DNA from: Burkholderiales bacterium
GTDB lineage: Bacteria; Pseudomonadota; Gammaproteobacteria; Burkholderiales; Usitatibacteraceae
NCBI GenBank assembly: GCA_031370625.1
Contig: JANMQR010000314.1
Coordinates: forward strand, 5,052 to 69,051
DNA length: 64,000 nucleotides
Reading direction: 5' to 3'
In this document: piece by piece, positions 1 through 26,493 of the stretch
How the letters are laid out: each line of letters opens with the position of its first letter
Numbering within the stretch: the first letter of the stretch is position 1
Translations under genes and position numbers: made by a program
The notes under the pieces: generated by a model
Database searches by the model: none
What the model was told of the DNA's origin: nothing
Seen by the model: only the letters and a program-made list of their open reading frames with translations

Positions 1-1844
1 TTTCCAGCGCCGCCCTGGTTCGCTGCACAAGTCCAACCCGTGCCTGAAGGTGCTGCACTAAGCGTTAGACCTGCGGGCAGCGTATCGACAACCGTGATGG
101 TTCCTGCACTGGTTTGCGCGCCGATATTGGTGACGGTCAGCGTGTAGGTTCCGGTTGCGCCGACAGTGAAGTTGCCGTTATGGGTTTTGGTCATCACCAG
201 ATCAGTCGCGATTACGGGCGTGACTACCGTTGACACGTTATTGCCGGTATAAGTCGGTGCTTCGGCAACCGTCGTGCTGGCGATAGTTGCTGTGTTGGAT
301 GCACTCGGGAAAGCGCCAGCAGCAACCGCAACAGGGATGGTTATCGCATTCGTGTTGGTCGCCCCTGCCGCAATCGCTGCCGTACTGGTGCAATTAATAT
401 TTGCGCTGCCCACGGTGTTGTTGCCAGCACCACCCTGGTTTGCCGCGCAAGTCCAACCTGTTCCTGTAGGCACAGCAGAAAGTGTTAATCCGGTGGGTAA
501 TGTATCGGTGACGGTATAGACATTGCCGGCCGCGAAATTCCCTGCTCCTGCATTCTTTGCAGTAATCGTGTAGGTGCTATTGATACCAATAACAAACTGT
601 GTCGGACCCGCTTTGGTAATTTGCAGATCGAAATCATTGACCGGCGTAACCAGTGATGTCGAATTGTTGCCAGTCGCACTCGCCGGCTCACCGCCGCCAG
701 ATACGCTTGCCGTATTGGTGACACTCGGTACGGCCGCTTGTGCGACCGCGACCGATAATGTGACAACTGTGGATGTTCCCGCGGGGGCAATGGACGTTGT
801 GCTGGTGCAATTAATATTGCTGGAGCCAATCGTATTGTTACCAGCGCCGCCCTGATTTGCCGCGCATGTCCATCCCGCGCCCACCGTAGGGACGGCGGCG
901 AGCGTAATGCCCGCTGGCAGCGTATCGATTAGGGTGTAACTCGCGGCACCAGTAGAGACGCCGCCAACATTGGTCACGCTCAGCGTGTATGTACCCGGCA
1001 CCCCTGGCGTAAAGCTTACAGAGCCGGTTTTGTTGACTTTAATGTCAGCGCAGTCCGTTGCGCAAACTGACGTGACCACGGCACCGCTTGAGTTATTGCT
1101 ACTATTTGAAGCGGGTTCGCCACCACCAGATACAGTCGCAATATTGGACACGCTCGGCGATGCAGCTGCCGATGGCAGCACCGTGACGGTAATGGCATTG
1201 GCATTAGTCCCGCCAGCAGCGATCACCGTGGTGTTCGTGCAGTTGAGTTGTGTAGACGTCGATGCTGCGCAATTCCAGCCCGTTCCGGTTGGCGTGCCGA
1301 CGATCGTTAATCCCGTTGGCATATTATCGATGACCGTGTACGTGCCAACGGTTGCACTACTGCCGAGAAGATTATTGACCGAAATCGAATACGACCCATT
1401 TATGCCGATGCCGAAAGTGCCATTGGCCGTTTTGACGATCTGCAAATCAGGGCTCGGCGTAATCGTCACACTGGCTTGGTCATTTTCACCCGCAATATTG
1501 TTATTCGGCGTCGAATTGGGATCGGCCTGATCAGCGTAATAAACCTCTGCCGTATTGGTGATCGATGTGGCCACCGTCACGTTCGCAGTAATCGTCAGGG
1601 TCGCGCTTGCGCCGCTGTTAAGTGTACTCACCATCCACACGCCGGCAATACCGTTGGGTGCTACCACACCCACGTTGTAGACACCTTGGGTGGCCGTGGC
1701 AGAAACAAGCGTAAGACCTGCCGGCAGCTGATCTTTAACGCGCACATCGGTCGCGCGATTTGGTCCATTGTTGGCGACGACGACCTTGAAAGTTACTTGA
1801 TTGCCCGGCGTTAGATTGGTCGCGGTCTTGGTAAGTCGAAGATC
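1..1844 (-). repeat. Tandem array of at least 5 diverged coding modules (about 396-426 nt each) inside gene D
   Basis: Module starts on the minus strand are at about 1844, 1448, 1046, 629 and 203. A conserved nucleotide core recurs at 1-45, 421-470 and 838-880 (ccagcRccRccctgRtttgcYgcRcaWgtcca). It encodes GWTCAANQGGAGNNT. Confidence 0.7.
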
Positions 1845-2708
1845 CGATCGTTGGCCCGGCGCACTGGCTAGATCGCCCCATGCGACCGCGATGCTGGTAC
1901 CAAGCTGTGTCGCGATCAATGAGCCAATATTGACGGTATACAGATTAGTCACCGCGCCAGCCTGTTCCATCACGAACAGCCGACCCGCACTGTCAAACGA
2001 GCAGCCTGGCAAGTTAGCAGGCGTGCCGCCACCTGACAACGTGATCGAGCCAAGACGAGTAACCGCGCCGGTGGGCGAAATAGTAAACAAACTCGGCGTG
2101 TTACCACCGCCAGTGCTGGCCACCATGTAAAGCTGGTTCGTACCGGGCTGCAAACACAAATCTCCACCGGGAGGAATGTTGATACCGTCAGGCCCGCCAG
2201 CAGGCGTTTGCGTGATCACCGCACCTGAATTGGTATCGAGCGTAAAAATTGTGGCTGGCGGCGCAACGCCGAAGGTGGGCGTGGGATTGATTGCATACAA
2301 GGTGCCTGCACCATCAAACCCCAAGCGAATCACTGCCGTTACGGCTGCGCCGGTAGAGCCCACTAGCACGGGCAGTATGGTAGGCGTGCCGGGATCCCAA
2401 CGCCAAAGCTGGGGATTTGCACCCTGCGAATCAAGGTAGAACAACATACCATCGCTCGGCCGAACAGCGAGTGTGGCCGCCGCCACCAATGGCGCAGCGA
2501 ACGTCACCGCCTTTGTCACCAATTGCGTCGCGGTCTGGCCCGTTGCCGAATCGACAGTATAAATACCCGTCGCATCAATACCGTAAACAGTTTCGGCATT
2601 GGCTGCAGGCATAAACCAAGAGCAAATCGAAAGCGAGATGGCGGCGAGTGGCGACAGTAACCAATCACGCCCGCGGCGTTTAGTCGCATCGCATTTATTT
2701 TCACGCAC
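1..2708 (-). CDS. Gene D of the DUF11 operon: exported beta-propeller-like domain plus tandem DUF11-type repeat protein; first 902 codons only (3' end lies beyond window start)
   Basis: Absent from the ORF track because no stop lies in the window. Hand translation of the minus strand shows the frame open from GTG at 2708 to position 1. GAGG lies 5 nt upstream of the GTG, which is 26 nt after the stop of the 2369-aa gene. The N-terminus VRENKCDATKRRGRDWLLSPLAAISLSICSWFMPAANA/ETVYGIDATGIYTVDSATGQ is a signal peptide. About 250 aa of Gly/Thr-rich propeller-like sequence follow. Then come modules starting DLRLTKTATN, DLQIVKTANG, DIKVNKTGSV, DLQITKAGPT and DLVMTKTHNG, with LPxGL and GW(T/N)C..NC motifs. 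All listed minus-strand ORFs in 1-2708 are in another frame. Confidence 0.8.
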   Translation of the reverse strand, partial: MRENKCDATKRRGRDWLLSPLAAISLSICSWFMPAANAETVYGIDATGIYTVDSATGQTATQLVTKAVTFAAPLVAAATLAVRPSDGMLFYLDSQGANPQLWRWDPGTPTILPVLVGSTGAAVTAVIRLGFDGAGTLYAINPTPTFGVAPPATIFTLDTNSGAVITQTPAGGPDGINIPPGGDLCLQPGTNQLYMVASTGGGNTPSLFTISPTGAVTRLGSITLSGGGTPANLPGCSFDSAGRLFVMEQAGAVTNLYTVNIGSLIATQLGTSIAVAWGDLASAPGQRSDLRLTKTATNLTPGNQVTFKVVVANNGPNRATDVRVKDQLPAGLTLVSATATQGVYNVGVVAPNGIAGVWMVSTLNSGASATLTITANVTVATSITNTAEVYYADQADPNSTPNNNIAGENDQASVTITPSPDLQIVKTANGTFGIGINGSYSISVNNLLGSSATVGTYTVIDNMPTGLTIVGTPTGTGWNCAASTSTQLNCTNTTVIAAGGTNANAITVTVLPSAAASPSVSNIATVSGGGEPASNSSNNSSGAVVTSVCATDCADIKVNKTGSVSFTPGVPGTYTLSVTNVGGVSTGAASYTLIDTLPAGITLAAVPTVGAGWTCAANQGGAGNNTIGSSNINCTSTTSIAPAGTSTVVTLSVAVAQAAVPSVTNTASVSGGGEPASATGNNSTSLVTPVNDFDLQITKAGPTQFVIGINSTYTITAKNAGAGNFAAGNVYTVTDTLPTGLTLSAVPTGTGWTCAANQGGAGNNTVGSANINCTSTAAIAAGATNTNAITIPVAVAAGAFPSASNTATIASTTVAEAPTYTGNNVSTVVTPVIATDLVMTKTHNGNFTVGATGTYTLTVTNIGAQTSAGTITVVDTLPAGLTLSAAPSGTGWTCAANQGGAG

Positions 2709-2734
2709 GGGCGCCTCAAAATTTATAGTTGTTT

Positions 2735-5700
2735 TCATTGGTCTACACGCGGCTTCCCGGCAGGCTGACTTGGTGAGGTAGCATCACCTTTCGCGCCCTC
2801 AATAATCCCGCGATAGGCGGAACTCCCAGGAGCCGTCCCCGTTGGGGTTGTCTCGGCCCTGGACGCATCGTCTGCTGTATTCGATGAACTATTCTTAACC
2901 GATTTCGGAAACAAGTCTTCATCAAACTTGTAGCGGAGCCGCAAATACGTGCCCTTGTTTGTGTATTCGCCGTTTGCGAAATCTTCATCGCGATAACCGT
3001 AGACGTTATAGCCGCCGGACAGCCACAAATTCTCCATCACCATAAAGCCCAGCTCGACACCAACCGCATATGTTTTGGATTGCAAGGCGCGACCAATTAC
3101 GGTTGAGCCGGTTACCGAGATATCCCAGCGCGGTGCAATTTCCCAAATCGCGCGTGCAGACAGCAAATGCGCACTATTCTTCGCTTTGATGCCGTTCGAA
3201 TCTTCGTTGACCCATTTCGCCGCGTAGCGCCCTGAGAACGTGAATGGACGACGCGGTTGCCAATTGGCGTGCAACGAGAATAATTCCACCGTGCGCTTGA
3301 GTTGCAATTCAGGTTGCGTTGTATCGTTTTCACTGCGATGCTCAACCCGCGCCAAACCATTCCACACATCGGTTTCGGTATCGCGGTAAGCCACACCAAC
3401 CTGCAAACGTTCTTGTTCATTTTTGCCCGTTTGCGTTTGCGTCTGCGCACCCTGATTTTTGATCAATGAATATGTATTGCGACCCAGGAAAGTCCACTCG
3501 CGATTAATCTTGGAGGCGACGGCCACGGTTGATAGTAGCGAGTCGCTACTGGTGCCGTCGCGAAGCTCCAAGCGGGTCGAGCCTTTCCACAACGGGCTTG
3601 CGGTGTACTCAAGACCGAACGTGAGCGCAGCCGATTCACCGGTGCCGGTGCCGGAGAATGAATGCACCCGCTCAAAGCCAGTTTGCAGTTTCAAACCGTC
3701 ACTTAACGTCCATAGATTTCGTAGCCCTAATGCAGCCTCGGCATCGCCACCCGAAATGGCATCGCGAATGCGGTACTCGCTGAATACGTTGCCGTCTTTC
3801 ATGTAGTCCGTGCTGATACCGATCACGCTGCTATTTTGTCGCTGCACAGTATTTAAACCGTATGGGCCGGTGAGCGAGGAAATGAACTCGTGGCGGCCAT
3901 ACAAACGGCCGCTGTTCGGCAATTTGTATTCACCGCCAATCGCCGCAATTTTGCGATCTGTATCTTTAGGGTCAACCTCCGCTTCTATGTACGCGGCGGC
4001 ATCTTTTATGCCCGGAATATCGCCTGTCAAGCGAGTGCGAATGCTGGTGACTTCCGTGGGCAACGGTCCAGATGCTGTTGTCGCAGGTGCCAGCGTTTCG
4101 CGCGCATGACGCACACCTAATTCCAGGCGCATGCCATTGTCGAGCGTGCGCTCAACAGCTGCGAGCAGGCCATCACGCTTACCGTTGCTGAGCAAATCTT
4201 CGCTGCGCAACATCTCTGCCTTCAGGCGGGTTTTCTCGTCAATCCGGTATGAAACATTGCCGCCAATTTCAGTTCTGCCACTGCTGAGACTGGAGCTGAT
4301 ATTGTCGAATTTTGCATCGGCGCGACCTGCGTAAAACAGCGCATCTATGTCGTCGCCTTTATGGCGGAATTCAACGCGCGAAGCGATGCCTTTTTTCTCG
4401 CCTTTGGTATCCCCGGTCGTGCCCGAACCAACACCAGACAAACCGCCCGCAATGCTGGTGCCCACTCGGTCACGAGTAGTTTGCGCAATCTCGGCAATCA
4501 GAAACGTTTTGTCCGCGAGCTTGGCAATCGCGTTAATACCGATCATGCGGAATTTATCAACCGGATTGCGATCATCAACCACCATCGCACCGATTTCAAA
4601 ATTATTCGTTAATTTGATTTGTGCATCCGCACCCGCGACCCAGAACTGTTCGCCGCCTTGATCTATTTCATAGGTGACGCGAATCGAATTTGGGTTAAAC
4701 AATTCATCGAGCGTTGGCACTGGCGCTTTCAAAATAATACGGCCCGTTAACGGTTCAAGCTCGTAGTCAGCGAAACGTGCAAGTGGCACTGTGCGAATAA
4801 TCACGCCAGTCTGGTTGCGATCTCGGGTAATGATTTCAACTTTTTCGCTGTTGATTAAGCCCTTGGCATTTGCAAGCGTGAATGGGCCAGACGTGCCATT
4901 CGCTTTAAATTCCTGCAACAATTGACGCGTTGTGTCGCGGCTAGCGAAAAGATTGGCCGAGATTTTATCGTTCTCAAAGTGCTGCTTTAAGCCCGTTAGC
5001 GAGCGATTGTAATTGGCGAGTTTGCGTGCCTCGGATGCGGACGTGGTGTTGTAGTCACCGTAGAGCAAATACGATTTTTTATTATCGACGCGAACATAGA
5101 AACGACCTGTGGATTGCGCATCAAACGCACGCACGCTGGAGTCGCCATAGACCGGATAGAACTCATCAGGCTGAATATCGCGGAATAAACGATCCCGCGT
5201 ATTTTTATCTGAATCATAAGCTAACGTCAGCAAATACTCGCCTTTGATTTTGCCTTTGATAAACATCGCCGCACGTGCACCAGCATCGTATTTGCCACCA
5301 TTCCAATTGCGCGAAATATGCGTGATCTCTTGCTCGAAACCGTCTTGCGCGCGGGCAGGCGTTAGCGCACGAGTGTCGAGCTTGCGCAAATTCAGCACGC
5401 CCTCAATCACACCGACCGCCAGCAGTTCGCGCACATCCGGCAAGAAATCAAGGCGAGCCTCTGAACTCAAAGCACCGCTGCGCACATTAATCACGGCCTG
5501 ACCGGGCTCAGCCGGCGGCAGCAAGGTAAATTCACCCACACCGCCCGCCACAAAGTTTTGTACACCAGGCTCAGCCGTATTCAAATCTTCGGCTTGCCAG
5601 CGCCCGAGATTAGTTAGCAAAGTGATAGCGGTGCGCGATGTCACGGCCACACCTTTGCTGTCAACGACACGCACAATTACCGTGACCGGCGTTTTTCCGT

Positions 5701-8700
5701 CAGCTCGGGCACCTGCGCTTGTAGCCTGCGGAAACTCGATCAACAACTTAGAAATATTGCCCGGGGCTGTCACTTTGATGGTGGCTTCACCGCGCTCGTT
5801 GCCAAACGCGTCAATTTGCTTTGCGGTCAGCGTATTCACACCCGGTATCAAATCCGCACCGATAAATTCCCACGCCTGCAATTTTTTGTCTTCCATGACC
5901 GCTTTTTTACCCACGCGATCATCAGCCAGCTCTTTACCATTGACGAACAGTTTGAACGTCGTGCCCTGCACACCTTTGACGCGAATCGTGGATTGCTTAT
6001 AGGCCAGCGTGTCGCCATCTTTCAAGCCAATAAAGCCAAGCGTATTGTTTTCTTGCGGCAGAATATTTTCGAGCGTGATCGCAGGCGCGTCGGAGCTACG
6101 ATCCACAATGGCGCGATTCAATGGCGGCTGCGCAGGCGCAATAGTGGCAAAGCCGACAGTGCCTAGCGTGGCCGCGTTTGCCAGTGTATTAATACCCGAC
6201 GGCAAAATCGATGCAGCACTGGGCGCCGGCGCTTGGCTGGACGGCGCAGTCAAGCCCACCACGCCGCTTGCGGGCAATGCCTTGATATCAGTTGCAAATC
6301 TATTAGCGGGATCAGTGGTCAGTTGCTGCTGCAAACGGCCATCGATTTCAGTTTTTAATTTGTTTGCTTCATCGCGACGCACCGCGACTTGATTCGCCAC
6401 TGACTCGCTACATGACTGAATCGCAAAGTCAGCTTTGTGCAGCTCGCCATATTTCACATCGAGGAACCGGCTGTCGCCCTTACCAGTGTTGCGATTTGAG
6501 CCCGTCGCAAAATCTTTGGCGTCAATGCCGGCGGGCAGCGTGGTTCGATCAATTTTCAGCACATGCGTGCGCGCGGAAAGGCCGTAGAAACTGTATTTTC
6601 CTTCACTGTCGGAAACAACGTTAGTACCGTCCTCCAGATACAAACGAACACCCGGAACGCCGACTTCACGCGCCAGTTTTTTCTTGTTCGCGTCATCTGT
6701 AGGCAGATTTTGTATGCCGTTTTTATCGCAATCGATAAATACTTTGCCGACGACATACGCTTTGTCGCTGAGTACACCGCCAACAATCGTCACCTGCGCC
6801 GCTGCAACATTCGACTCACTGAAACGCGTGCCACCGTTACCGATGCGATAAGTTGCGACGACTCGATTGATACCATCGCCTTGTGCAGCGCCCGGCCCGA
6901 CGCGCACTCGGTAAGCGACGCGAACCTGCTGACCCAGCGCCATGCTGCCGATATTGAAAATTAGGCGCGAGCCGGAAACAAATTGCGGATCGGCGAGTGG
7001 CTTGCCTTCGAGGCGCGCCGTGCCGAGCACAAATGAGAAACCTGCTGGCAGCGAGTCCGTTAGCAGCACCGGGCTTTGATTCAATGCGTAGCCGGTGTTG
7101 TTATTGATTGTGACGCTGTAATCCGTTAAGTCACCGATCTCGACGGTAGTGCGCGACACCGTCTTCTGCACAAACAATCCACCAATACGGCCCGCGTCCA
7201 CCGGAATATCGATGATGACTGGCCCCGTCTCCGGCCCCACGCGGAACGCGCCACCATAGGAGCCACCTGTGGTTGGCCCGGTCGCCAACACGTTGCGCCC
7301 GGACGGCAGCTGGCTCACTGGCACAGCAGATACAAACGTATAACCGTTCGGTGGCGTGACTAATGCGCAATAATCGCCCGGCGACACCAGCGGGAAATCG
7401 AAGCGCCCGTCCGCACGCGTCACCACCGTCGCAGGCGCTGTGACAATAGAGCCATTCACAAGCTGGCTCACTGTCGCCAAGGTGCTTGTACACACACCAC
7501 CCTGCGCGGTGACCAATCTCACCGTCGCACCAGCAACAGGCTCATTGGTGCGGCTGTCAAACACGACGCCGTTAGGGTCGATCACAGTTACGCTGGTTGC
7601 AATTCTGCGTCCGCAACCGATAATTTCCACGCTGTAAGTGTCGTATGAATTACCCTCAAGGATGTTGTCGCCTGCGACCACTGGGGGCTTACGAACCGGC
7701 AATCCACCTGCTTCAAAAATACCGGTGTTAGGTCCCGTCTCAATCGCGATTATTTCTTCGCGTTCACCGTTAGCACCAGTGATGATAATAGTGCGGCGCT
7801 CAATCACATCTGGCAATTGATTACACGAAGGTGCATTCGCACGCAAAAATAAATCACGACCAATAAACGCCCACGGCGTGGCACGCAGGAAGCCGCCATC
7901 GATGAAACCTTGGATAATATTTTCTACCGTGGCGGTCGTACCAATAGTGGTTGTATCGCGATTGGTGAGCGTTCCGCTGGATGTTGTATTGACGCGGAAA
8001 TCTGTTGTGTTGCTCGCACCGCTTGCTGCGTTTACGGGTGCTACTACACGGCTCAAGAACACAATGCGCGCACCGGGCGACAGTGTAAATGTGCTGCTTG
8101 GCGTCACAACGACATCAGTCGCGTCGAACACGCCCACAATGGATTGACCACCCGCGACTGTGTTATCAACGACAATTTGTGCCGTCCAGCTGGCACTGCC
8201 ATTGACGAGGAAATTTGCTGGGAAGGTGATTGTTTCGCTACACGTGCCAACGTTAGTGAGCACGTGTGTGTACACAACATTTCCGCCCGGTGTGGTGCGA
8301 CCGGTGTTGTCTGGCTCCAGCACGACACGACACAGATTAGCAATTGATGTCACCACATCATCATCGACGGCACGAATGAGCGGATTGGTGATTGACTGCG
8401 CATTTTTGGAAACGCGGAACGGGCCACCTGCGATGCCCGGCGGCAGAATTGCTTTCACGACAATGCGATAAGTTGCACCCGCGGCGACGGGCCCGGTATC
8501 GGGAATCGTGTTGCCGTTGGTATCGGTCAATGGCGTGACGCCATCGGCTTTGAATAGCTGGAAAATCGTACCGGGTGGGAAGTTTGACCCCGATAAGGTC
8601 ACATCAAAACTATCGGACTTGCTGGTGTTGTTGGTCAACACGTTATTAAACGTGACTGCGCTACCGGGATCAGCTGAAGCCAGCGTCACGCCGCGCAAGG

Positions 8701-9844
8701 TGATGTTTTCTGTTCCGGTGATGCGGAAATCCACCGGGTTGCTGGTAAGCGGACCCACTCGTGTGCCGTTAACACTGGTGTAAGAATTTTCTGCGACGTT
8801 GGTGAGCACGCTATTCAACGCAAGGCCAGGCGCAATATTCACATCAAAAGAAACGAGGCCGGATTCATTCTGTGGCATCGTCGCGAAGTTCACGCTGACG
8901 CGATCGGCCGCGGTTGTGTAGGTGCCAGTAAGACCATTGAACATAAACGGCCCACTTGCCGCATTCAGACTTGCATCATTGGTTTGTGGAGGTGCTGCAA
9001 GGCGCAAGGTGCCGGGCACATAGGTCATGCCGGCAGGCAACACATCCGAAATAGTGACGTTGGTTTTTACAGCATCACCAATGCCTGCATTGCCATAACG
9101 AATCAACACGCGATAGGCACCGCTAGGCGAATTTCCTTGAATCGCGGAAATGGATTTACTGAAAAACAAATCGTAAGTCGTTGGCACGACAATCGGCGCG
9201 ACGATAACGAGACATTGATTCGTCACCGCATTTAAAACATTGGCGATACCGGTAATGGAGGCTGGCCCATTCGTAAACGCAGCCGGATTACCCGCGCAAC
9301 TTGCATTAATTTGCGTTGGCGCATTGGTGACGCCGCTCACAGAGATGTCACAAACCTGTGTGCCCGGCACCATGCTCGCATTCGACACGCTAATCGTCGA
9401 TGGCTGGGTAAACGTGACGGCGCCCGCGCAGCCGGGAGATCGTGTGACCACAGGCGCAGCGGTCAAACGTAAGCCTGCTGGCAATGTGTCTGTAAAGGCA
9501 ACGCCCGCTTGCGCAGGTGAGCCGAATGTATTGAACAGGCTGAATCTGATGGTCGCGGTTTCACCCGGATTAATGGACTCGACGGCGAACGACTTTCGCA
9601 ATGACGGCAAGCCCGCTGCTGCGCCAACAGTAGCCGTCACCATGTTGCTGGTGGTGGACTGCGGCAGGCCGCCAATTTGCTGGCTGCTCGAGGCGGTGTT
9701 GCTCAGCACGGTACCGGTGGGTGGTGGTGCGGCTAGAGCGCTCTGGCTGATCGCGAATGCCGCAACCAAACTCAACGCGACGCTGATTGGCCTGGCAAAT
9801 GAGCTGCATAGACGAGAATTTTTTTGATTATTATTCATCGTCAA
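2735..9844 (-). CDS. Gene C: giant exported protein (2369 aa) with DUF11 / Cna-B / SdrD-B / Big_1-like repeats fused to an ~840-aa C-terminal outer-membrane beta-barrel-like region
   Basis: ORF track. The TTG at 9844 abuts the TAG of the upstream gene; the ATG at 9838 is the likelier start. Signal peptide SVALSLVAAFAISQSALA/APPP.
- aa ~80-640 and ~890-1020: DUF11-type modules (LFVQKTVSRTTVEIGDLTDYSVTINNNTG..LLTDSLPAGFSF).
- aa ~755-885: Cna-B/carboxypeptidase-regulatory-like (ATVRLVTAQGG..TRADGRFDFPLVSPGDYCALVTPPNGYTF).
- aa ~1025-1145: SdrD-B-like (VVGKVFIDCDKNGIQN..GVPGVRLYLEDGTNVVSDSEGKYSFYGL).
- aa ~1362-1468: Big_1/invasin-like (ADGKTPVTVIVRVVDSKGVAV).
- aa ~1470-2307: amphipathic beta-strand-rich region ending GGYNVYGYRDEDFANGEYTNKGTYLRLRYKF.
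- Last 62 aa: S/T/P/G-rich tail. Confidence 0.85.
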   Translation of the reverse strand: MTMNNNQKNSRLCSSFARPISVALSLVAAFAISQSALAAPPPTGTVLSNTASSSQQIGGLPQSTTSNMVTATVGAAAGLPSLRKSFAVESINPGETATIRFSLFNTFGSPAQAGVAFTDTLPAGLRLTAAPVVTRSPGCAGAVTFTQPSTISVSNASMVPGTQVCDISVSGVTNAPTQINASCAGNPAAFTNGPASITGIANVLNAVTNQCLVIVAPIVVPTTYDLFFSKSISAIQGNSPSGAYRVLIRYGNAGIGDAVKTNVTISDVLPAGMTYVPGTLRLAAPPQTNDASLNAASGPFMFNGLTGTYTTAADRVSVNFATMPQNESGLVSFDVNIAPGLALNSVLTNVAENSYTSVNGTRVGPLTSNPVDFRITGTENITLRGVTLASADPGSAVTFNNVLTNNTSKSDSFDVTLSGSNFPPGTIFQLFKADGVTPLTDTNGNTIPDTGPVAAGATYRIVVKAILPPGIAGGPFRVSKNAQSITNPLIRAVDDDVVTSIANLCRVVLEPDNTGRTTPGGNVVYTHVLTNVGTCSETITFPANFLVNGSASWTAQIVVDNTVAGGQSIVGVFDATDVVVTPSSTFTLSPGARIVFLSRVVAPVNAASGASNTTDFRVNTTSSGTLTNRDTTTIGTTATVENIIQGFIDGGFLRATPWAFIGRDLFLRANAPSCNQLPDVIERRTIIITGANGEREEIIAIETGPNTGIFEAGGLPVRKPPVVAGDNILEGNSYDTYSVEIIGCGRRIATSVTVIDPNGVVFDSRTNEPVAGATVRLVTAQGGVCTSTLATVSQLVNGSIVTAPATVVTRADGRFDFPLVSPGDYCALVTPPNGYTFVSAVPVSQLPSGRNVLATGPTTGGSYGGAFRVGPETGPVIIDIPVDAGRIGGLFVQKTVSRTTVEIGDLTDYSVTINNNTGYALNQSPVLLTDSLPAGFSFVLGTARLEGKPLADPQFVSGSRLIFNIGSMALGQQVRVAYRVRVGPGAAQGDGINRVVATYRIGNGGTRFSESNVAAAQVTIVGGVLSDKAYVVGKVFIDCDKNGIQNLPTDDANKKKLAREVGVPGVRLYLEDGTNVVSDSEGKYSFYGLSARTHVLKIDRTTLPAGIDAKDFATGSNRNTGKGDSRFLDVKYGELHKADFAIQSCSESVANQVAVRRDEANKLKTEIDGRLQQQLTTDPANRFATDIKALPASGVVGLTAPSSQAPAPSAASILPSGINTLANAATLGTVGFATIAPAQPPLNRAIVDRSSDAPAITLENILPQENNTLGFIGLKDGDTLAYKQSTIRVKGVQGTTFKLFVNGKELADDRVGKKAVMEDKKLQAWEFIGADLIPGVNTLTAKQIDAFGNERGEATIKVTAPGNISKLLIEFPQATSAGARADGKTPVTVIVRVVDSKGVAVTSRTAITLLTNLGRWQAEDLNTAEPGVQNFVAGGVGEFTLLPPAEPGQAVINVRSGALSSEARLDFLPDVRELLAVGVIEGVLNLRKLDTRALTPARAQDGFEQEITHISRNWNGGKYDAGARAAMFIKGKIKGEYLLTLAYDSDKNTRDRLFRDIQPDEFYPVYGDSSVRAFDAQSTGRFYVRVDNKKSYLLYGDYNTTSASEARKLANYNRSLTGLKQHFENDKISANLFASRDTTRQLLQEFKANGTSGPFTLANAKGLINSEKVEIITRDRNQTGVIIRTVPLARFADYELEPLTGRIILKAPVPTLDELFNPNSIRVTYEIDQGGEQFWVAGADAQIKLTNNFEIGAMVVDDRNPVDKFRMIGINAIAKLADKTFLIAEIAQTTRDRVGTSIAGGLSGVGSGTTGDTKGEKKGIASRVEFRHKGDDIDALFYAGRADAKFDNISSSLSSGRTEIGGNVSYRIDEKTRLKAEMLRSEDLLSNGKRDGLLAAVERTLDNGMRLELGVRHARETLAPATTASGPLPTEVTSIRTRLTGDIPGIKDAAAYIEAEVDPKDTDRKIAAIGGEYKLPNSGRLYGRHEFISSLTGPYGLNTVQRQNSSVIGISTDYMKDGNVFSEYRIRDAISGGDAEAALGLRNLWTLSDGLKLQTGFERVHSFSGTGTGESAALTFGLEYTASPLWKGSTRLELRDGTSSDSLLSTVAVASKINREWTFLGRNTYSLIKNQGAQTQTQTGKNEQERLQVGVAYRDTETDVWNGLARVEHRSENDTTQPELQLKRTVELFSLHANWQPRRPFTFSGRYAAKWVNEDSNGIKAKNSAHLLSARAIWEIAPRWDISVTGSTVIGRALQSKTYAVGVELGFMVMENLWLSGGYNVYGYRDEDFANGEYTNKGTYLRLRYKFDEDLFPKSVKNSSSNTADDASRAETTPTGTAPGSSAYRGIIEGAKGDATSPSQPAGKPRVDQ

Positions 9845-12800
9845 CTACATCGTATTAATCTTCACGCAGAACTGCAGCGTGATGGTTTGGTTTTGCGCGA
9901 GCGGTGTTGTTGCTGCGGGTGAGGATTGCGCATTAATCGTTCCAGTAAAGCCAGCGGGGTAAGTGCCCCTCAACGCAATTGGCCCGGTAACAGTTGGTGC
10001 ACCGCAACCCAGCTCAAGCGATGTATTCGGCGGTACAAGATCGCTCAAATTAATATTCGTTGCGTTAGCCGTCGCCGAATTGATGCCGACGATAAGGTAT
10101 GAAATACAGTTTCCCGGAATCGTATTTGCACTCGCCGCCAACCCAGCACTACTCCAAGGCGAATTTGGCACGCCTGCGGTTAACGTTGTTGTCGGTGTCG
10201 TGGTGCAGGAGCCGTTTCCGCCGGGAAGCTGCTGATATTTTGCGAGCTTGAGTCCATCAGAAAGTGATGTGGTGTCAGTTACCGTCAAGATAGAAGCACC
10301 TCCGTTATACGTCACCGTTGCGGTCGTGATATTCGGCGGGCTGCCGACGGCAAGCGGCGCAGTCACGCGGATGAAAATAGCGCGCTGCTCGTTCGGCAAT
10401 AGAGCAGGAATAGTGGTGGTACCCGGCACAATTTGCGCATCTGTGCCCGCATCAAAAACACCGTTGCCATTGGTATCAATAAACGCGGTTGAAGTCCACC
10501 CGAACATCGGTGTTTGGTTATTCGCTAAAAAATTAGCCGGAAACACAATGGTTTCAGCGAGATTTCCGTTGTTCGTCAGCGTGTGCGTATACGTGACTGT
10601 CGCGCCTGCCACCGTACCCTGCGCGCCGTTCGGGGTTAGCGTTACTGCATGCACAGGCGCCACCGTGACCTGATCGCGTATCGTGTCGGCAATCGCTGGA
10701 TTGCTTTGATTTGCAATCCCGAACTGAATCACATAACTGCCGGCAGGCGACGGTGTCGGTGTCGCCACTGTGCCAGGGCTGGTTGCGGGCACGGTCACTT
10801 CTGCACAGACGATACGACTGCCACCGGCCGGTATCGGTGCGGCACCAGTGGTCGTGACTGCCGCGCCCAAGGGCGCATTACAGTTGGTGCCGTTACCGCT
10901 GTCCTTAAACGTGACAACCCAGCCCGCTGGTGGTGTCGCCAAGCCCACCGTGCCGGGCACGGAAATAAACGATGCACTCAAGTTATAAATCGACGCAATC
11001 GCGCTGGTGTTGTTGGCATAGAGCGTGAACACCGTCGTGGTCGGGGCTGCCAGCGCTGGCGTCACTGTATTGGTGATCTGCACTGTTGCGTTGTCAGGCC
11101 CTGTGCCCAATACGCCCACGCCAGCGAGGGGCGCATTGTTGGTGATGTCGGTGCTATTTGGAATAATAGTGGTGAGCGTATCGACCACGGTATCGAAGCG
11201 CGTGGTGTCGAAACGCGAGCGAGCTTCCAGCGTAATTCGATAACCATTGCCGCTGTTGTTTCCCGCCACCGCATTCGCAGGCAGCGTGGCGCGAATCACC
11301 ACCGGGTAGCCGCAGGAAACACCGCTTGCGCTGATGATGTAAGGCGCAGGACATGCGCCTGCATTTGGCAACGGAATCGTTCCCGTATCGGGGATGCCGT
11401 TGCCATTGCTGTCTTGTAACGCGGTGGCACCGTTAAACGACAAGATTTGGAAGGTGGTACCGGGCGGGAAAGTACACGCATCGACCACGCTACTATTCGC
11501 GGGACTACAAGTAGCACCGTTGGCTGACAATGCATTACCGGGATAGGCGGCTGCGGAAGTGCCATCACGAATAATCACATCAAAACTATCGGGCGAGGCG
11601 CCACGGTTCCACACGTAATCGGTGAACGTGACGGATTGCCCCGGCGCGGCGCTGGGTGCGGTAACTGGCTCGTTATCGGTAATGCCCGTGGTGGTGGAAG
11701 ATCCATTCACCGATAAATTCGCCGTTTGCACCACCGTGTATTGCACAGAGTTGGTTGGTGCGGGCGGCACCGAAATGGTGGTGACCCCAATCGTGTAGCC
11801 GTACTGAACGCTCGCGGTATTGGTGGTGGTGATCGCGTTTGATGGCGAGGTGACCGGCAAATTCGGCGCAATCGTTACCTGAAAATACACGCTGCCGTTG
11901 GCTGCCGGTGCCAATACTGTCAAGGTTGCATCGACCGCGCCCGAGACAGCCGTGGTCGGCGCTTGATACGTGATGCCAGCAGGATCGCCCGCAGGTGCAT
12001 CGGTGAGGGCGGTGGATGGGCCGGAAACAGACCAGCGCCCAGTGCCGGGCAGATACAACCAACCGCTCGGCAATTGGTCGAGCAGGCGCACATTGTCCGC
12101 CTGAATTGAGCCTGTGTTCGCGTACTCCAACACCACATAAAGCGGCCCCGAATTCGGGCTGACACCACCGGCGACCGGAATATAGCCCGGTGGTGGCACG
12201 CTCGATAATTTTTTCGTTACATTTACAGCCGCCGCACCAATCGTCGTGGTGTCGACCTGCGTGAGCGTATTTACTGTCGGCGCGTTGGTATCGCTGACTG
12301 AAACAATAATGGTACCGGCTTGCCCCACGGTGGCCGTTGCAGCCGTGGTGCCGCATACGACGAAGCTAAAACTCGCCCCCGCATTTATCGATACGGCTGC
12401 CGTAATCGGTGTTGCAGAATCCGCCACGCCGTCCTGATTGGCGTCCGAAAAATAAACGAGACCGGTATGCGCAAACATGCCGCCCGTGGTGGCTGGGTTC
12501 AGCGTGTATGAATCGGTACCATTACCGGTATTGGTAATCGTGTGTGGGTAGCAAACTTGTTGACTGGCGGGGACAGTCTTGGCACCTGTTTGCGTGAGCG
12601 TAAAGCTCTTCACCTGCAAGACGGTCGTCTGTACGGTGTTCGATGTGACGGGCCGCACCGTACCAGTGCTGTCCACATAAGTTGCTGAGGCTTGATTGCC
12701 GATCACCGAATTCGCAGGAGCAGGTGCTGCATGCGCGGCCAACGAGAGCAAAACCATGGTCGCAGTGAGCAAAAAGGCGAGCGCCTTCTCACGCGCGCGC

Positions 12801-12853
12801 AGCGCATATCGCATCCAGACGAATCCGGTCTGGTAGGATACGAGGACATCCAT
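9845..12853 (-). CDS. Gene B: exported 1002-aa multi-domain DUF11-type repeat protein
   Basis: ORF track. GGAGA lies 8 nt upstream of the ATG at 12853; an alternative start is M14 at 12814. Signal-like segment KALAFLLTATMVLLSLAAHA/APAP. There are repeated ~130-150-aa modules with motifs such as VCYPHTITNTGNGTDSYTL, VTFTDYVWNRGASPDSFDV and VTYTHTLTNNGNLAETIVFPANF. The C-terminus (TLQFCVKINTM) carries no membrane anchor or sorting signal. Confidence 0.85.
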   Translation of the reverse strand: MDVLVSYQTGFVWMRYALRAREKALAFLLTATMVLLSLAAHAAPAPANSVIGNQASATYVDSTGTVRPVTSNTVQTTVLQVKSFTLTQTGAKTVPASQQVCYPHTITNTGNGTDSYTLNPATTGGMFAHTGLVYFSDANQDGVADSATPITAAVSINAGASFSFVVCGTTAATATVGQAGTIIVSVSDTNAPTVNTLTQVDTTTIGAAAVNVTKKLSSVPPPGYIPVAGGVSPNSGPLYVVLEYANTGSIQADNVRLLDQLPSGWLYLPGTGRWSVSGPSTALTDAPAGDPAGITYQAPTTAVSGAVDATLTVLAPAANGSVYFQVTIAPNLPVTSPSNAITTTNTASVQYGYTIGVTTISVPPAPTNSVQYTVVQTANLSVNGSSTTTGITDNEPVTAPSAAPGQSVTFTDYVWNRGASPDSFDVIIRDGTSAAAYPGNALSANGATCSPANSSVVDACTFPPGTTFQILSFNGATALQDSNGNGIPDTGTIPLPNAGACPAPYIISASGVSCGYPVVIRATLPANAVAGNNSGNGYRITLEARSRFDTTRFDTVVDTLTTIIPNSTDITNNAPLAGVGVLGTGPDNATVQITNTVTPALAAPTTTVFTLYANNTSAIASIYNLSASFISVPGTVGLATPPAGWVVTFKDSGNGTNCNAPLGAAVTTTGAAPIPAGGSRIVCAEVTVPATSPGTVATPTPSPAGSYVIQFGIANQSNPAIADTIRDQVTVAPVHAVTLTPNGAQGTVAGATVTYTHTLTNNGNLAETIVFPANFLANNQTPMFGWTSTAFIDTNGNGVFDAGTDAQIVPGTTTIPALLPNEQRAIFIRVTAPLAVGSPPNITTATVTYNGGASILTVTDTTSLSDGLKLAKYQQLPGGNGSCTTTPTTTLTAGVPNSPWSSAGLAASANTIPGNCISYLIVGINSATANATNINLSDLVPPNTSLELGCGAPTVTGPIALRGTYPAGFTGTINAQSSPAATTPLAQNQTITLQFCVKINTM

Positions 12854-13015: not shown

Positions 13016-13606
13016 CTATTTTTTTAAAGTTACGTCGACACCACTAACACTGGCAGCACCCGCGGCCACCCTGAACTGCGCCGAAAAAACAATTGATTGC
13101 TTTGGGCCTAACTCGCCCGGATACCAGCGCAGATAGCGATATTCACTCAGCGCTACCACCTGCTCAACTTCTACGCCATTTGCCTGCTTCACTTTTCGCT
13201 TTAGCGGCATGGCAAAAAAATTTGTCCCGTCAACGCTCGCGCGCGCGGCCGCTGGCGTGACGGTGTTCATAACCAATTCAGTATTAACCGGCACTGGCAA
13301 TGTCGCCACAACACCACTCAGTGTGCGACTGGATTTGTTAGTGTAGGTCGCCAAATCTTGCAGCACTTCGCCGGGCTTGGCAGTTGACGCATTCTGTAAT
13401 GATTCTTTGCCGGCGACGATGACAACTTTGCTGCGTTCCAGTCGGATGTCGAGTGGATTATCGGCCGCATTGTTCGTCACAACTTTTTGAGCCACAGCCG
13501 CGCTCACTCCGCCTACTGTCAGTGCACCGCAAGCTATACAAGCTGCTATCGCAAAATTTTGCCCAATGTTTCGACCGATGTTCCGATTTAGCGCGCGAAC
13601 CAACAT
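13016..13606 (-). CDS. Gene A: exported 196-aa single beta-sandwich (DUF11-like) protein
   Basis: ORF track. GGGGAG RBS upstream of the ATG at 13606. Signal/TM segment FAIAACIACGALTVGGVSAAVA/QKV. The mature ~160 aa carry DUF11-like motifs (PGEVLQDLATYTNKSSRTLSGVVATLPVPVNTELV .. YLRWYPGELGPKQSIVFSAQFRV). Confidence 0.8.
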   Translation of the reverse strand: MLVRALNRNIGRNIGQNFAIAACIACGALTVGGVSAAVAQKVVTNNAADNPLDIRLERSKVVIVAGKESLQNASTAKPGEVLQDLATYTNKSSRTLSGVVATLPVPVNTELVMNTVTPAAARASVDGTNFFAMPLKRKVKQANGVEVEQVVALSEYRYLRWYPGELGPKQSIVFSAQFRVAAGAASVSGVDVTLKK

Positions 13607-25268: not shown

Positions 25269-25683
25269 AGCGCTTTTGTAAGGATTCGCCGACAACAGAA
25301 GCGGGGGTATTCCGGTCTTTTTAATTGAGTGCTTCAGAAATAATCAATTGGTCGAAATCGAATTACAGGCCATTATGAAAACTTCAAATGCACTCAAGCA
25401 GCGTGGGTTGGTCAGTGTTCTGGCGAATGAGCCCGAGGTGGCTCCCGACCACGTCCTCCGTTCCCCATTCGGCGTCATGAATTTTTTAGCGCCAGTATCG
25501 CAACTCAAACCGCGCGCAGTGCTTCATTCGCACAACACGTCTGCGCGTCTCGGCCCAGCGCATACGAATTTCGCCCGCACATCGGCTTTTCCGCTCCCGG
25601 GGCTCCGCGCCATGCCCGTACCTGATGGCCGAAGCCATGAAACGTTGACGAATTCAGTGACGAACCTGAAGACCAATTCCCCA

Positions 25684-26493
25684 ATGCAAAATAGCCTCTT
25701 GGCGGCATTGTCGCCAGCAGAACTTGATCGACTCACCCCCCATTTGGAATTGGTGAAAATGTCACTCGGCGACGTGCTCTACGAGTCCGGCGGTCGCCTG
25801 CAGCACGTGTTTTTTCCGACCACCTCAATTGTGTCACTGCTCTATGTGCTCGAAGACGGTGCATCGACGGAAATCGCGGCGGTGGGCAATGAAGGCATTC
25901 TTGGCGTGTCCACCTTCATGGGCGGCGACACGACGCCAAGCCGTGCGGTCGTACAAAGCGCGGGATACGGTTATCGCATCACCACACAAAATCTAAAGCA
26001 AGAATTCGAGCGCACTGGCGGCTTGTTCAGGCTTCTGTTGAGATACGCCCAAGCGCTGATGACGCAGACCGCACAAATGGCGGTTTGCAATCGCCACCAC
26101 TCGCTTGAACAACAGCTGTGCCGGCGACTTCTGTTCAGCCTGGATCGCCTGCCCACCGATTCGCTGTTCATGACGCAAGAACTTATCGCCAATATGCTGG
26201 GCGTGCGCCGTGAAGGCGTCACCGCTGCAGCGGGAAACTTACAGCGCGCCGGGCTCATTCGCTACAGCCGCGGGCGTATCGATATTCTGGATCGCAATGG
26301 CCTGGAATCGGCGGTCTGCGAGTGTTACGGCGTAGTGAAGCTCGAATTCAATCGACTACTCTCTGACAACCACCGCAGTGATCCGTTTCACACTCTTCGG
26401 CAAGCGGAGGAACGAGTTGACTCACTTACCCACTTCACGAATAAAAATTCCGCGAGCGTCAAACGGAACGTGAGCAATTCGTTGTATGCGTGA
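25684..26493 (+). CDS. Crp/Fnr-family transcriptional regulator
   Basis: The ORF track starts at 25348, but the first 112 aa are not protein-like. The likely start is MQNSLLAALSPAELDRLTPHLELV at 25684. It has a cNMP-binding-like fold and a C-terminal HTH (ELIANMLGVRREGVTAAAGNLQRAGLI). Confidence 0.8.
   Translation: MQNSLLAALSPAELDRLTPHLELVKMSLGDVLYESGGRLQHVFFPTTSIVSLLYVLEDGASTEIAAVGNEGILGVSTFMGGDTTPSRAVVQSAGYGYRITTQNLKQEFERTGGLFRLLLRYAQALMTQTAQMAVCNRHHSLEQQLCRRLLFSLDRLPTDSLFMTQELIANMLGVRREGVTAAAGNLQRAGLIRYSRGRIDILDRNGLESAVCECYGVVKLEFNRLLSDNHRSDPFHTLRQAEERVDSLTHFTNKNSASVKRNVSNSLYA

Follow-up and report, generated by a model that had tools for sequence, protein, structure and literature searches.

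We analyzed a 64,000-nt stretch of a Burkholderiales bacterium genome (assembly GCA_031370625.1, contig JANMQR010000314.1, positions 5,052 to 69,051; hereafter the window, whose own coordinates are used throughout), focusing on the minus-strand open reading frame (ORF) at 2735..9844, which encodes an adhesin-type stalk followed by a giant predicted β-barrel. A preliminary description of the window had taken this protein for a chimera, but a stalk joined to a giant barrel is the usual layout throughout a large family (61 complete genes, at least 3,363 protein clusters) and not a peculiarity of this genome. Our leading explanation, held tentatively at somewhat less than an even chance, is that the protein is the base subunit of a multi-protein cell-surface fiber, assembled by means of β-hairpins, and that the family building such fibers is widespread. 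The more specific proposal, possible but distinctly less probable, is that fibers are secreted and assembled at the outer membrane by a pathway not yet described: a barrel of about 38 strands would export a pre-folded fiber via its own lumen and stay covalently attached to it, while split CLIPPER domains would join the subunits head-to-tail under an intermolecular Lys-Asn lock. The partner genes and the split-domain logic, both absent from the preliminary description, are the features most telling about mechanism.

Distribution of the stalk-barrel family

An exhaustive search with the barrel module recovered at least 3,363 protein clusters (50% identity) at E<=1e-3 and 1,383 at E<=1e-30. The module is nearly always C-terminal, in proteins of roughly 1,300-2,800 aa (longest, 4,597 aa); it matches 718 proteins in one database and is encoded by at least 539 GTDB species genomes. 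Its hosts include Burkholderiales, Usitatibacter, Steroidobacter, Moraxellaceae, Verrucomicrobia, Acidobacteria, Nitrospirota, Geobacteraceae, Gemmatimonas and Balneolaceae. Stalk and barrel are fused in the majority of the 61 complete family genes that were recovered, which encode 930-2,459 aa; the stalk varies widely in length and composition among relatives, and the barrel is conserved. Because the C-terminal module alone recruits thousands of homologs, the domain layout is far beyond chance. None of these thousands of relatives has been characterized, and in the databases they are named only "hypothetical", "large repetitive protein" or "DUF11/SdrD B-like/Ig-like domain-containing".

One clade has two overlapping genes instead, the break falling in the linker after SdrD_B: one encodes a passenger of 1,381 aa and the other a barrel protein of 1,082 aa that carries a signal peptide of its own. 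In the literature, we found no description of the barrel family, its function, its operon or split CLIPPER domains. Barrels of 38 and 40 strands have been predicted computationally (PMC8346858), as have 38-strand barrels of Deinococcus (PMC9388160), and, judging from the portions of these sources available to us, the present family may already be included in the predicted 38-/40-strand catalog (PMC8346858).

Predicted structure of the C-terminal barrel

The predicted outer-membrane β-barrel spans residues 1475-2307 (2924..5422, minus strand, as are all features of the ORF and its gene cluster) and has about 38 wall strands, based on an AlphaFold2 (AF2) model, its DSSP strand list, Foldseek, covariation and hydrophobicity. 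Its last strand, GTYLRLRYKF (residues 2298-2307; 2924..2953), resembles the β-signal of the β-barrel assembly machinery (BAM) and follows a family consensus of YLRLRxKF ([YF]LRLRxKF). Pfam and NCBIfam scans of the barrel region alone were without any match, and the C-terminal 901 aa had none among PDB sequences even at E<=10. With the family profile, the barrel matched only an OmpT porin in the PDB, marginally (E 0.038), and the weak Pfam matches in relatives all fell in outer-membrane barrel families (DUF2490, Porin_4, OMP_b-brl and KdgM).

The AF2 model, covering residues 1300-2320 and built from an alignment of 76 homologs, had a mean predicted local distance difference test score (pLDDT) of 80.5 and a predicted template modeling score (pTM) of 0.67; DSSP assigned 45 elements after the immunoglobulin-like (Ig-like) domains that precede the barrel. 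Mean-field direct coupling analysis (DCA) of 323 non-redundant homologs (effective number, Meff, ~270) showed that the last 31 of these strands (s15-s45) mostly pair consecutively and antiparallel at z 4-17, with four weak pairs (z 1.5-2.5). Model residues 329-338 pair with 435-445 (s8-s15, z 11.5), and the ~90 residues between them therefore constitute an inserted small β-domain, the strands of which pair mutually (z 4-8). This domain (NGTSGPF...EKVEIITRDRNQ, residues 1639-1728; 4661..4930), placed by covariation between wall strands 7 and 8, is a candidate plug or clamp. Thirty-two wall strands are well supported by covariation and six N-terminal ones come from AF2; among the latter, strand LLAVGVIEGVL begins five residues past the second Ig-like domain. 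Covariation between that domain and the barrel was at noise level. The C-terminal ~835 aa are thus predicted to form one long antiparallel sheet of ~38 strands, at least 32 of them well supported. The preliminary description had proposed a pore of 22-30 strands fused to its own stalk; a very large fused barrel is indeed predicted, and the strand count of the model exceeds that range.

The arrangement of loops and side chains is typical of membrane barrels. Turns on one side are all 7 aa or shorter, and the long loops (35, 37, 15, an insert of ~96, 23, 14, 13 and 15 aa) all lie on the opposite side. The outer face of the 38 strands has a mean Kyte-Doolittle hydropathy of +0.87 with 10% charged residues, as against -1.14 and 34% for the inner face. 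The module therefore shows the generic traits of an outer-membrane β-barrel, namely an amphipathic antiparallel meander, short turns with long loops, and an aromatic-ended C-terminal β-signal. The top Foldseek matches in the PDB were all large, closed outer-membrane barrels (SprA, TonB-dependent transporters, SlpA, LptD, MtrB and PapC), with a probability of ~1.0 for most and TM-scores of just 0.1-0.33; the fold class is therefore clear and a close structural relative absent.

The family's most conserved motif, DSDKxTRxRLFRDIQPDEFYPVYGDSS (RLFRDIQPDEFYPVYGDSS, residues 1545-1581; 5102..5212), lies in a loop on the long-loop side and is the region that AF2 modeled worst (pLDDT 26-35). High conservation together with poor model confidence suggests that it folds only against a partner, whether the stalk, the 196-aa protein encoded upstream, or a substrate. 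The strongest covarying pair of the module joins model residues 311 and 470 (window ~4435-4437 and 4912-4914, minus strand), in the loop between wall strands 5 and 6 and in wall strand 10, respectively, and this coupling indicates that the loop packs on the interior of the barrel wall.

We also considered whether the module might instead be divided into at least two smaller barrels, or be a β-structure, open or soluble, that AF2 has over-regularized, and judge this to be very improbable. Multi-barrel chains do exist (PMC8346858), but the best Foldseek E-values here are to the single 36-strand barrel of SprA, and accurate AF2 models of giant barrels have been reported (10.1101/2022.10.09.511469). 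The weak couplings at s25-26, s30-31 and s43-44 (z 1.5-1.9) could mark breaks between sub-barrels, yet the weak pairs are joined by loops of 2-7 aa, which leaves no linkers there. The closing contact is likewise at noise level in the covariation, but no alternative closing contacts emerged: the best non-neighbor pair had z <4, compared with 4-17 for most neighbors.

Topology and orientation of the stalk

In relatives P0333 and P0372 an OmpA peptidoglycan-binding domain directly follows the barrel, and in P0246 TPR repeats do likewise, which places the barrel C-terminus in the periplasm. An even number of strands would put the barrel N-terminus there too. Since both ends are probably periplasmic, the passenger must cross the barrel's own lumen, as in type Va autotransporters.

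The same topology would suit an envelope-structural protein whose repeats remain periplasmic, connecting or spacing the cell wall and the outer membrane in the manner of Deinococcus SlpA, or a large porin. Such a protein, which we regard as improbable, would have the N-terminus of its first strand in the periplasm, as the even strand number and periplasmic C-terminus require; SlpA is among the best query-normalized TM-scores (0.22-0.23), and the family is functionally tied to an OmpA peptidoglycan-binding module. However, stalks of 600-1,400+ aa, with roughly 10-14 Ig-like modules, would outreach the width of the periplasm, and the family scan found no SLH domain and no coiled coil. Modules of the CLIPPER, SdrD_B, Big_1 and prealbumin-like kinds characteristically belong to extracellular stalks (PMC12617251), and a variable stalk on a conserved barrel is what would be expected of surface adhesins.

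Stalk modules of the barrel protein

The ORF was confirmed as 2369 codons counted from a TTG, which directly follows the stop of the upstream gene. The ATG at 9838, 6 nt further on, is probably the true start and would give 2367 aa; the protein of the closest relative starts MNNNQKNSR. From the N-terminus, the protein has a signal-peptide-like segment read from the sequence (residues 3-38, ending ...SQSALA before APPP; 9731..9838), and homologs begin alike. It is followed by an orphan β-hairpin motif, GTVLSNTASSSQQIGGLPQSTTSNMVTATV (residues 44-77; 9614..9715; motif hidden Markov model (HMM), independent E-value 5e-4), and by a CLIPPER-related DUF7933 domain (residues 80-177; 9314..9607; Pfam E 1e-12). 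A β-rich repeat region (residues 180-750; 7595..9307) has no Pfam match and is homologous to the 1002-aa protein encoded next to it. Pfam and NCBIfam then identify a CarboxypepD_reg/SpaA prealbumin-like (Cna-B-like) domain (residues 759-842; 7319..7570).

The next module is a complete domain of the DUF11 type, now named CLIPPER (residues 891-1022; 6779..7174), which has its own β8-β9 (VATYRIGNGG...SNVAAAQVTIV) and matches TIGR01451 at 891-997 (E 3e-17). The SdrD_B-like module (FIDCDKNGIQN, residues 1035-1120; 6485..6742) scored above the gathering score (E 3e-8), and a profile search of the PDB also matched the SdrD crystal structure (E 3e-7). A helix-like, low-complexity linker (residues 1157-1299; 5948..6376), the point at which the gene of the sister clade is split, leads to two Ig-like β-sandwiches in the AF2 model (residues 1300-1394 and 1395-1469; 5438..5947). 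The second of these is found in all family members and is Big_1/Invasin_D3-like in relatives. Behind the barrel is a low-complexity tail of 62 aa rich in Ser, Thr, Ala and Pro (2738..2923), unlike relatives, which by the family consensus usually end ~7 residues past the KF.

This domain order, from signal peptide through Ig-like domains to a strand-rich region ending in GTYLRLRYKF, had been recognized in the preliminary description and agrees with Pfam, NCBIfam and AF2. Its view that SdrD-B and Cna-B modules are unusual in this setting is outdated, as CnaA- and CnaB-type stalk modules are common in Gram-negative adhesins (PMC12617251). The stalk fits the CLIPPER/DUF11 fibrillar adhesin pattern as defined there, with a signal-peptide-like start plus DUF7933, DUF11/TIGR01451, CarboxypepD_reg/SpaA and SdrD_B.

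Gene cluster and putatively split CLIPPER domains

The minus-strand cluster runs, in order, OmpA-like gene, 196-aa gene, 1002-aa DUF11 gene, the stalk-barrel ORF and a DUF11 gene of more than 912 aa, with gene junctions 6 nt apart or overlapping as ATGA. At its head, the OmpA-family gene (14353..15513) encodes an 8-strand barrel with a peptidoglycan-binding OmpA_C domain. The 196-aa gene (13016..13606) encodes a secreted, DUF11-like single β-sandwich, and the 1002-aa gene (9845..12853) a DUF11 protein with a signal peptide. In a survey of 83 related loci from many phyla, homologs of the 196-aa protein were present upstream on the same strand in 51 and of the 1002-aa protein in 55, and an OmpA-like gene was adjacent in 16. 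The two partners measure ~190 aa and ~900-1000 aa across the family.

In CnaA-like CLIPPER domains, the isopeptide links a Lys of strand 1 (β1) to an Asn of the penultimate strand (PMC12617251), and the K, D and N positions are conserved in the internal DUF11 consensus, where such an intramolecular bond may form. The mature N-terminus of the 1002-aa protein, AGTSIGNQASATYTDASGVTRTVTSNTVSTTVQQV (consensus), hardly varies from phylum to phylum in nearly all of 52 homologs and is far more conserved than the remaining protein; in the window it is a hairpin at residues 47-86 (12596-12715). A degenerate copy stands right after the signal peptide of the barrel protein (residues 44-77), and the motif occurs within the first 110 aa in 109 of 178 long barrel-protein relatives, with only 4 internal matches. 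The motif HMM also matches the end of the complete internal DUF11 domain (996-1022). This match at the C-terminal end of DUF11, taken with the position of the CLIPPER Asn in the penultimate strand, points to the motif being an orphan β8-β9 hairpin.

A complementary truncation is found at the other end of the 1002-aa protein. Nearly all of 45 homologs end 0-7 residues past ...gtL.pG.sa.ltF.VkIn, and when the terminal domain was aligned to complete DUF11 domains with hhalign (probability 96.8%, E 2e-10), the alignment stopped at column 105 of 151, just ahead of β8-β9. In the window, this CLIPPER-like domain (about 9848-10216) is truncated after β7: it keeps the Lys and the Asp of D.tP and is without the last two strands, including the Asn-bearing one. 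The 196-aa protein, on a weak alignment, ends at the equivalent column (108). There would thus be two donors and two acceptors, and the simplest arrangement is a chain of cap (196 aa), extender (1002 aa), stalk and barrel.

Foldseek returned only generic β-sandwiches for the 196-aa protein (best E 5e-3, no significant match), which rules it out as a chaperone-like or LptE-like factor. In one related locus (L021), the genes for the 196-aa and 1002-aa proteins seemed to be fused, which proved to be an out-of-frame ORF-extension artifact. Downstream, the DUF11 gene of more than 912 aa (1..2738), whose ATG overlaps the stop of the stalk-barrel ORF (ATGA) so that the two are translationally coupled, leaves the window after at least 5 DUF11 repeats. 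Its product carries a signal peptide; the N-terminal region, ETVYGIDATGIYTVDS..., is distinct and lacks the donor-hairpin motif, and homologs were present in only 25 of the 83 loci.

The presence of several secreted DUF11 proteins in the operon, with no other secretion genes recognized in the flanks examined, could also mean that the barrel is an usher-like or two-partner-like translocon that chiefly exports the separate 1002-, 196- and >912-aa proteins in folded form, its fused N-terminal region being one substrate among several or a periplasmic recruiting arm. Ushers and SprA let folded proteins through, and a wide barrel could do the same for Ig-like domains that are folded and disulfide-bonded (both PapC and SprA being Foldseek matches). 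A whole clade makes passenger and barrel separately; in most of the 61 complete genes, nevertheless, the stalk is fused to the barrel. The domain inserted between wall strands 7 and 8 is near the location of the usher plug, which sits between usher strands 6 and 7, but loop parity puts it on the long-loop side and not on the periplasmic side. Nor is there an Usher Pfam match (the TM-score to PapC is 0.21-0.28) or a PapD-like chaperone, the 196-aa protein being a generic β-sandwich. We consider this translocon unlikely as the chief role; it overlaps the fiber-base explanation and does not exclude it.

Proposed assembly of the fiber

In the fiber that we propose, all components would be exported by Sec, and BAM would insert the barrel so that its N- and C-terminus both face the periplasm. 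The stalk, its Ig-like modules already folded, would pass through the wide lumen to the surface and remain tethered at the periplasmic rim via the second Ig domain, with conserved long loops (the YPVYGDSS loop) and the inserted domain clamping or gating it. The 1002-aa protein would have its truncated last domain completed by the N-terminal hairpin of the stalk, and with its own N-terminal hairpin it would complete the 196-aa protein, which would form the cap. The product would be a linear fiber of cap, extender, stalk and barrel, its joints possibly locked by intermolecular Lys-Asn isopeptides, and the OmpA-like protein would link the base to peptidoglycan and so make it load-bearing. Donor-strand complementation and intermolecular isopeptides are both known from archaeal threads (PMC9715654).

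Several points weigh against this proposal. No energy source for export is evident, and we infer surface exposure of the stalk from its domain types. For the barrel, the closure of which is putative, the closing pair (strand 1 versus strand 38) is at the noise level of a sliding-window null, and the first six or seven strands have weak covariation (z 2-4). Relative P0368 carries a CARDB/DUF7619-like sequence after the barrel, which is odd for a periplasmic C-terminus and may be a gene-call fusion. The evidence for hairpin complementation between proteins consists of profile alignments, and the 1002-aa hairpin could instead complete its own C-terminal domain in cis. The 196-aa family aligns weakly with DUF11 (E 2.4e-3, probability 12%); against single sequences, hhalign gave just a 15-44-residue motif match, a comparison interpretable only against family alignments. 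AF2 also renders the 196-aa protein as a confident, self-contained single β-sandwich. At residue ~98, the equivalent of the acidic residue of CLIPPER D.LP, most relatives carry Glu (vEATLP) and the 196-aa protein encoded in the window carries Val (GVVATLP). Finally, passenger and barrel of the split clade are without an obvious donor/acceptor pair.

Neighboring genes

Beside the adhesin cluster and divergent from it, a plus-strand gene at 16059-25268 encodes 3069 aa with Glycoamylase, GH94 supersandwich and GH94 catalytic domains and resembles cyclic β-1,2-glucan synthase (NdvB/Cgs-like). Downstream of it, a Crp/Fnr-type regulator (cNMP_binding plus HTH_Crp_2) is encoded at 25348-26493, also on the plus strand. 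At another locus (L001, 1-5810), the cassette of a relative adjoins exopolysaccharide export genes (Poly_export/Wza-like, a Wzc-like kinase and glycosyltransferases), and these neighbors hint at a link to the biofilm matrix.

Implications

On our reading the system is a barrel-anchored, Sec-dependent adhesin fiber, and there is a substantial chance that its assembly pathway is new. If so, a broad environmental group of diderms (Burkholderiales, Gammaproteobacteria, Verrucomicrobia, Acidobacteria, Nitrospirota, Desulfuromonadales and Gemmatimonadota) would build surface fibers by machinery outside the catalogued secretion types, which would explain how isopeptide- or disulfide-stabilized Ig-like stalks that fold in the periplasm arrive at the surface. 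It would amount to a natural SpyTag/SpyCatcher-style pilus in diderms, present in hundreds of species of at least seven phyla, and its split-domain ligation module would be of biotechnological interest. Thousands of proteins now named "hypothetical" or "DUF11 domain-containing" would gain a testable function, and cultured hosts for genetics include Massilia, Noviherbaspirillum suwonense, Polaromonas sp. CF318 and Alkanindiges illinoisensis.

Comparison with known systems

The preliminary description had held that the protein fits neither classical nor inverse autotransporters and is distinct from ushers and LptD, and our sequence tests, along with Foldseek TM-scores of 0.1-0.33, lead to the same view. 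Like a type Va autotransporter, it combines in one chain a Sec signal, an N-terminal repetitive passenger and an outer-membrane barrel at the C-terminus. In sequence, however, the two barrels are unrelated: PF03797 was absent from the ORF and eight relatives even at E<=1, and ~38 strands make the barrel about three times oversize compared with the 12 of type Va. Strand 1 is directly preceded by an Ig domain instead of an α-helical linker, the lumen is predicted to be wide enough for folded domains, and there are conserved partner proteins. Type Ve inverse autotransporters share Ig domains adjoining the barrel and the logic of an adhesin stalk, here in reversed order, with the barrel C-terminal, no LysM domain and no IAT_beta match; the Big_1/Invasin_D3-like domain is all that is common. 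A divergent member of either type is therefore barely credible, even granting the passenger N-terminal to the barrel as in Va and the Big_1/Invasin_D3-like domains beside it as in Ve, given that neither Autotransporter nor IAT_beta matched the query or relatives, that the domain order is opposite to Ve, and that type V systems do not include such conserved partner genes. Type Vb/Omp85, which pairs a 16-strand barrel bearing POTRA domains with a substrate bearing a TPS domain, was likewise rejected, with no Bac_surface_Ag, POTRA or TPS matches in the ORF or relatives, and no sequence test supported an LptD identity.

Among giant barrels, SprA/Sov gave the best Foldseek E-values (7e-8) and is also a single-chain barrel (36 strands) that passes folded proteins. 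The TM-score is 0.11-0.15 at 7% identity, and no C-terminal-domain family of the type IX secretion system was matched; SprA/Sov has no fused passenger and recognizes C-terminal-domain signals. SprA is also restricted to Bacteroidota, whereas hosts of the present barrel include Proteobacteria, Verrucomicrobia and Acidobacteria. SlpA has an N-terminal SLH domain, a trimeric coiled coil and a C-terminal 30-strand barrel; an SlpA-like connector was rejected, as no SLH or coiled-coil families were matched and the TM-score was 0.22-0.25. The predicted 38- and 40-strand barrels (PMC8346858, PMC9388160), compared here by description, have the same predicted single-chain size, which in their case is also a prediction; the available portions of these sources describe no function, operon or stalk for them.

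The Gram-negative CLIPPER/DUF11 adhesins, exemplified by B9T28_05395 of Acinetobacter silvestris (PMC12617251), have the same stalk modules and an OmpA-like link; in that adhesin an OmpA-like domain is the anchor and there is no giant barrel, and sharing of split CLIPPER domains between proteins is not described for this group. Archaeal threads (PMC9715654) use the chemistry proposed here, donor-strand complementation with intermolecular isopeptides; they are small-subunit homopolymers with no outer membrane and no barrel.

Membership of the chaperone-usher pathway, with its 24-strand, plugged usher barrel and PapD-like periplasmic chaperone, was rejected because there is no Usher (PF00577) match, the TM-score to PapC is low (0.21-0.28) and the cluster has no chaperone gene. 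A small β-domain inserted early in the barrel is nevertheless common to both. Fibers of Ig-like subunits whose incomplete folds are completed by the N-terminal extension of a neighbor may be a second likeness, the truncated CLIPPER domains and orphan hairpins of the present system being seen in sequences and profiles. The proposed donor here is a two-strand hairpin of a split CnaA-like (CLIPPER) domain and not one strand; the subunits are giant and multi-domain, and pore and base subunit form a single covalent chain. Functionally, then, the system mixes features of type Va autotransporters with those of chaperone-usher pili and is a member of neither.

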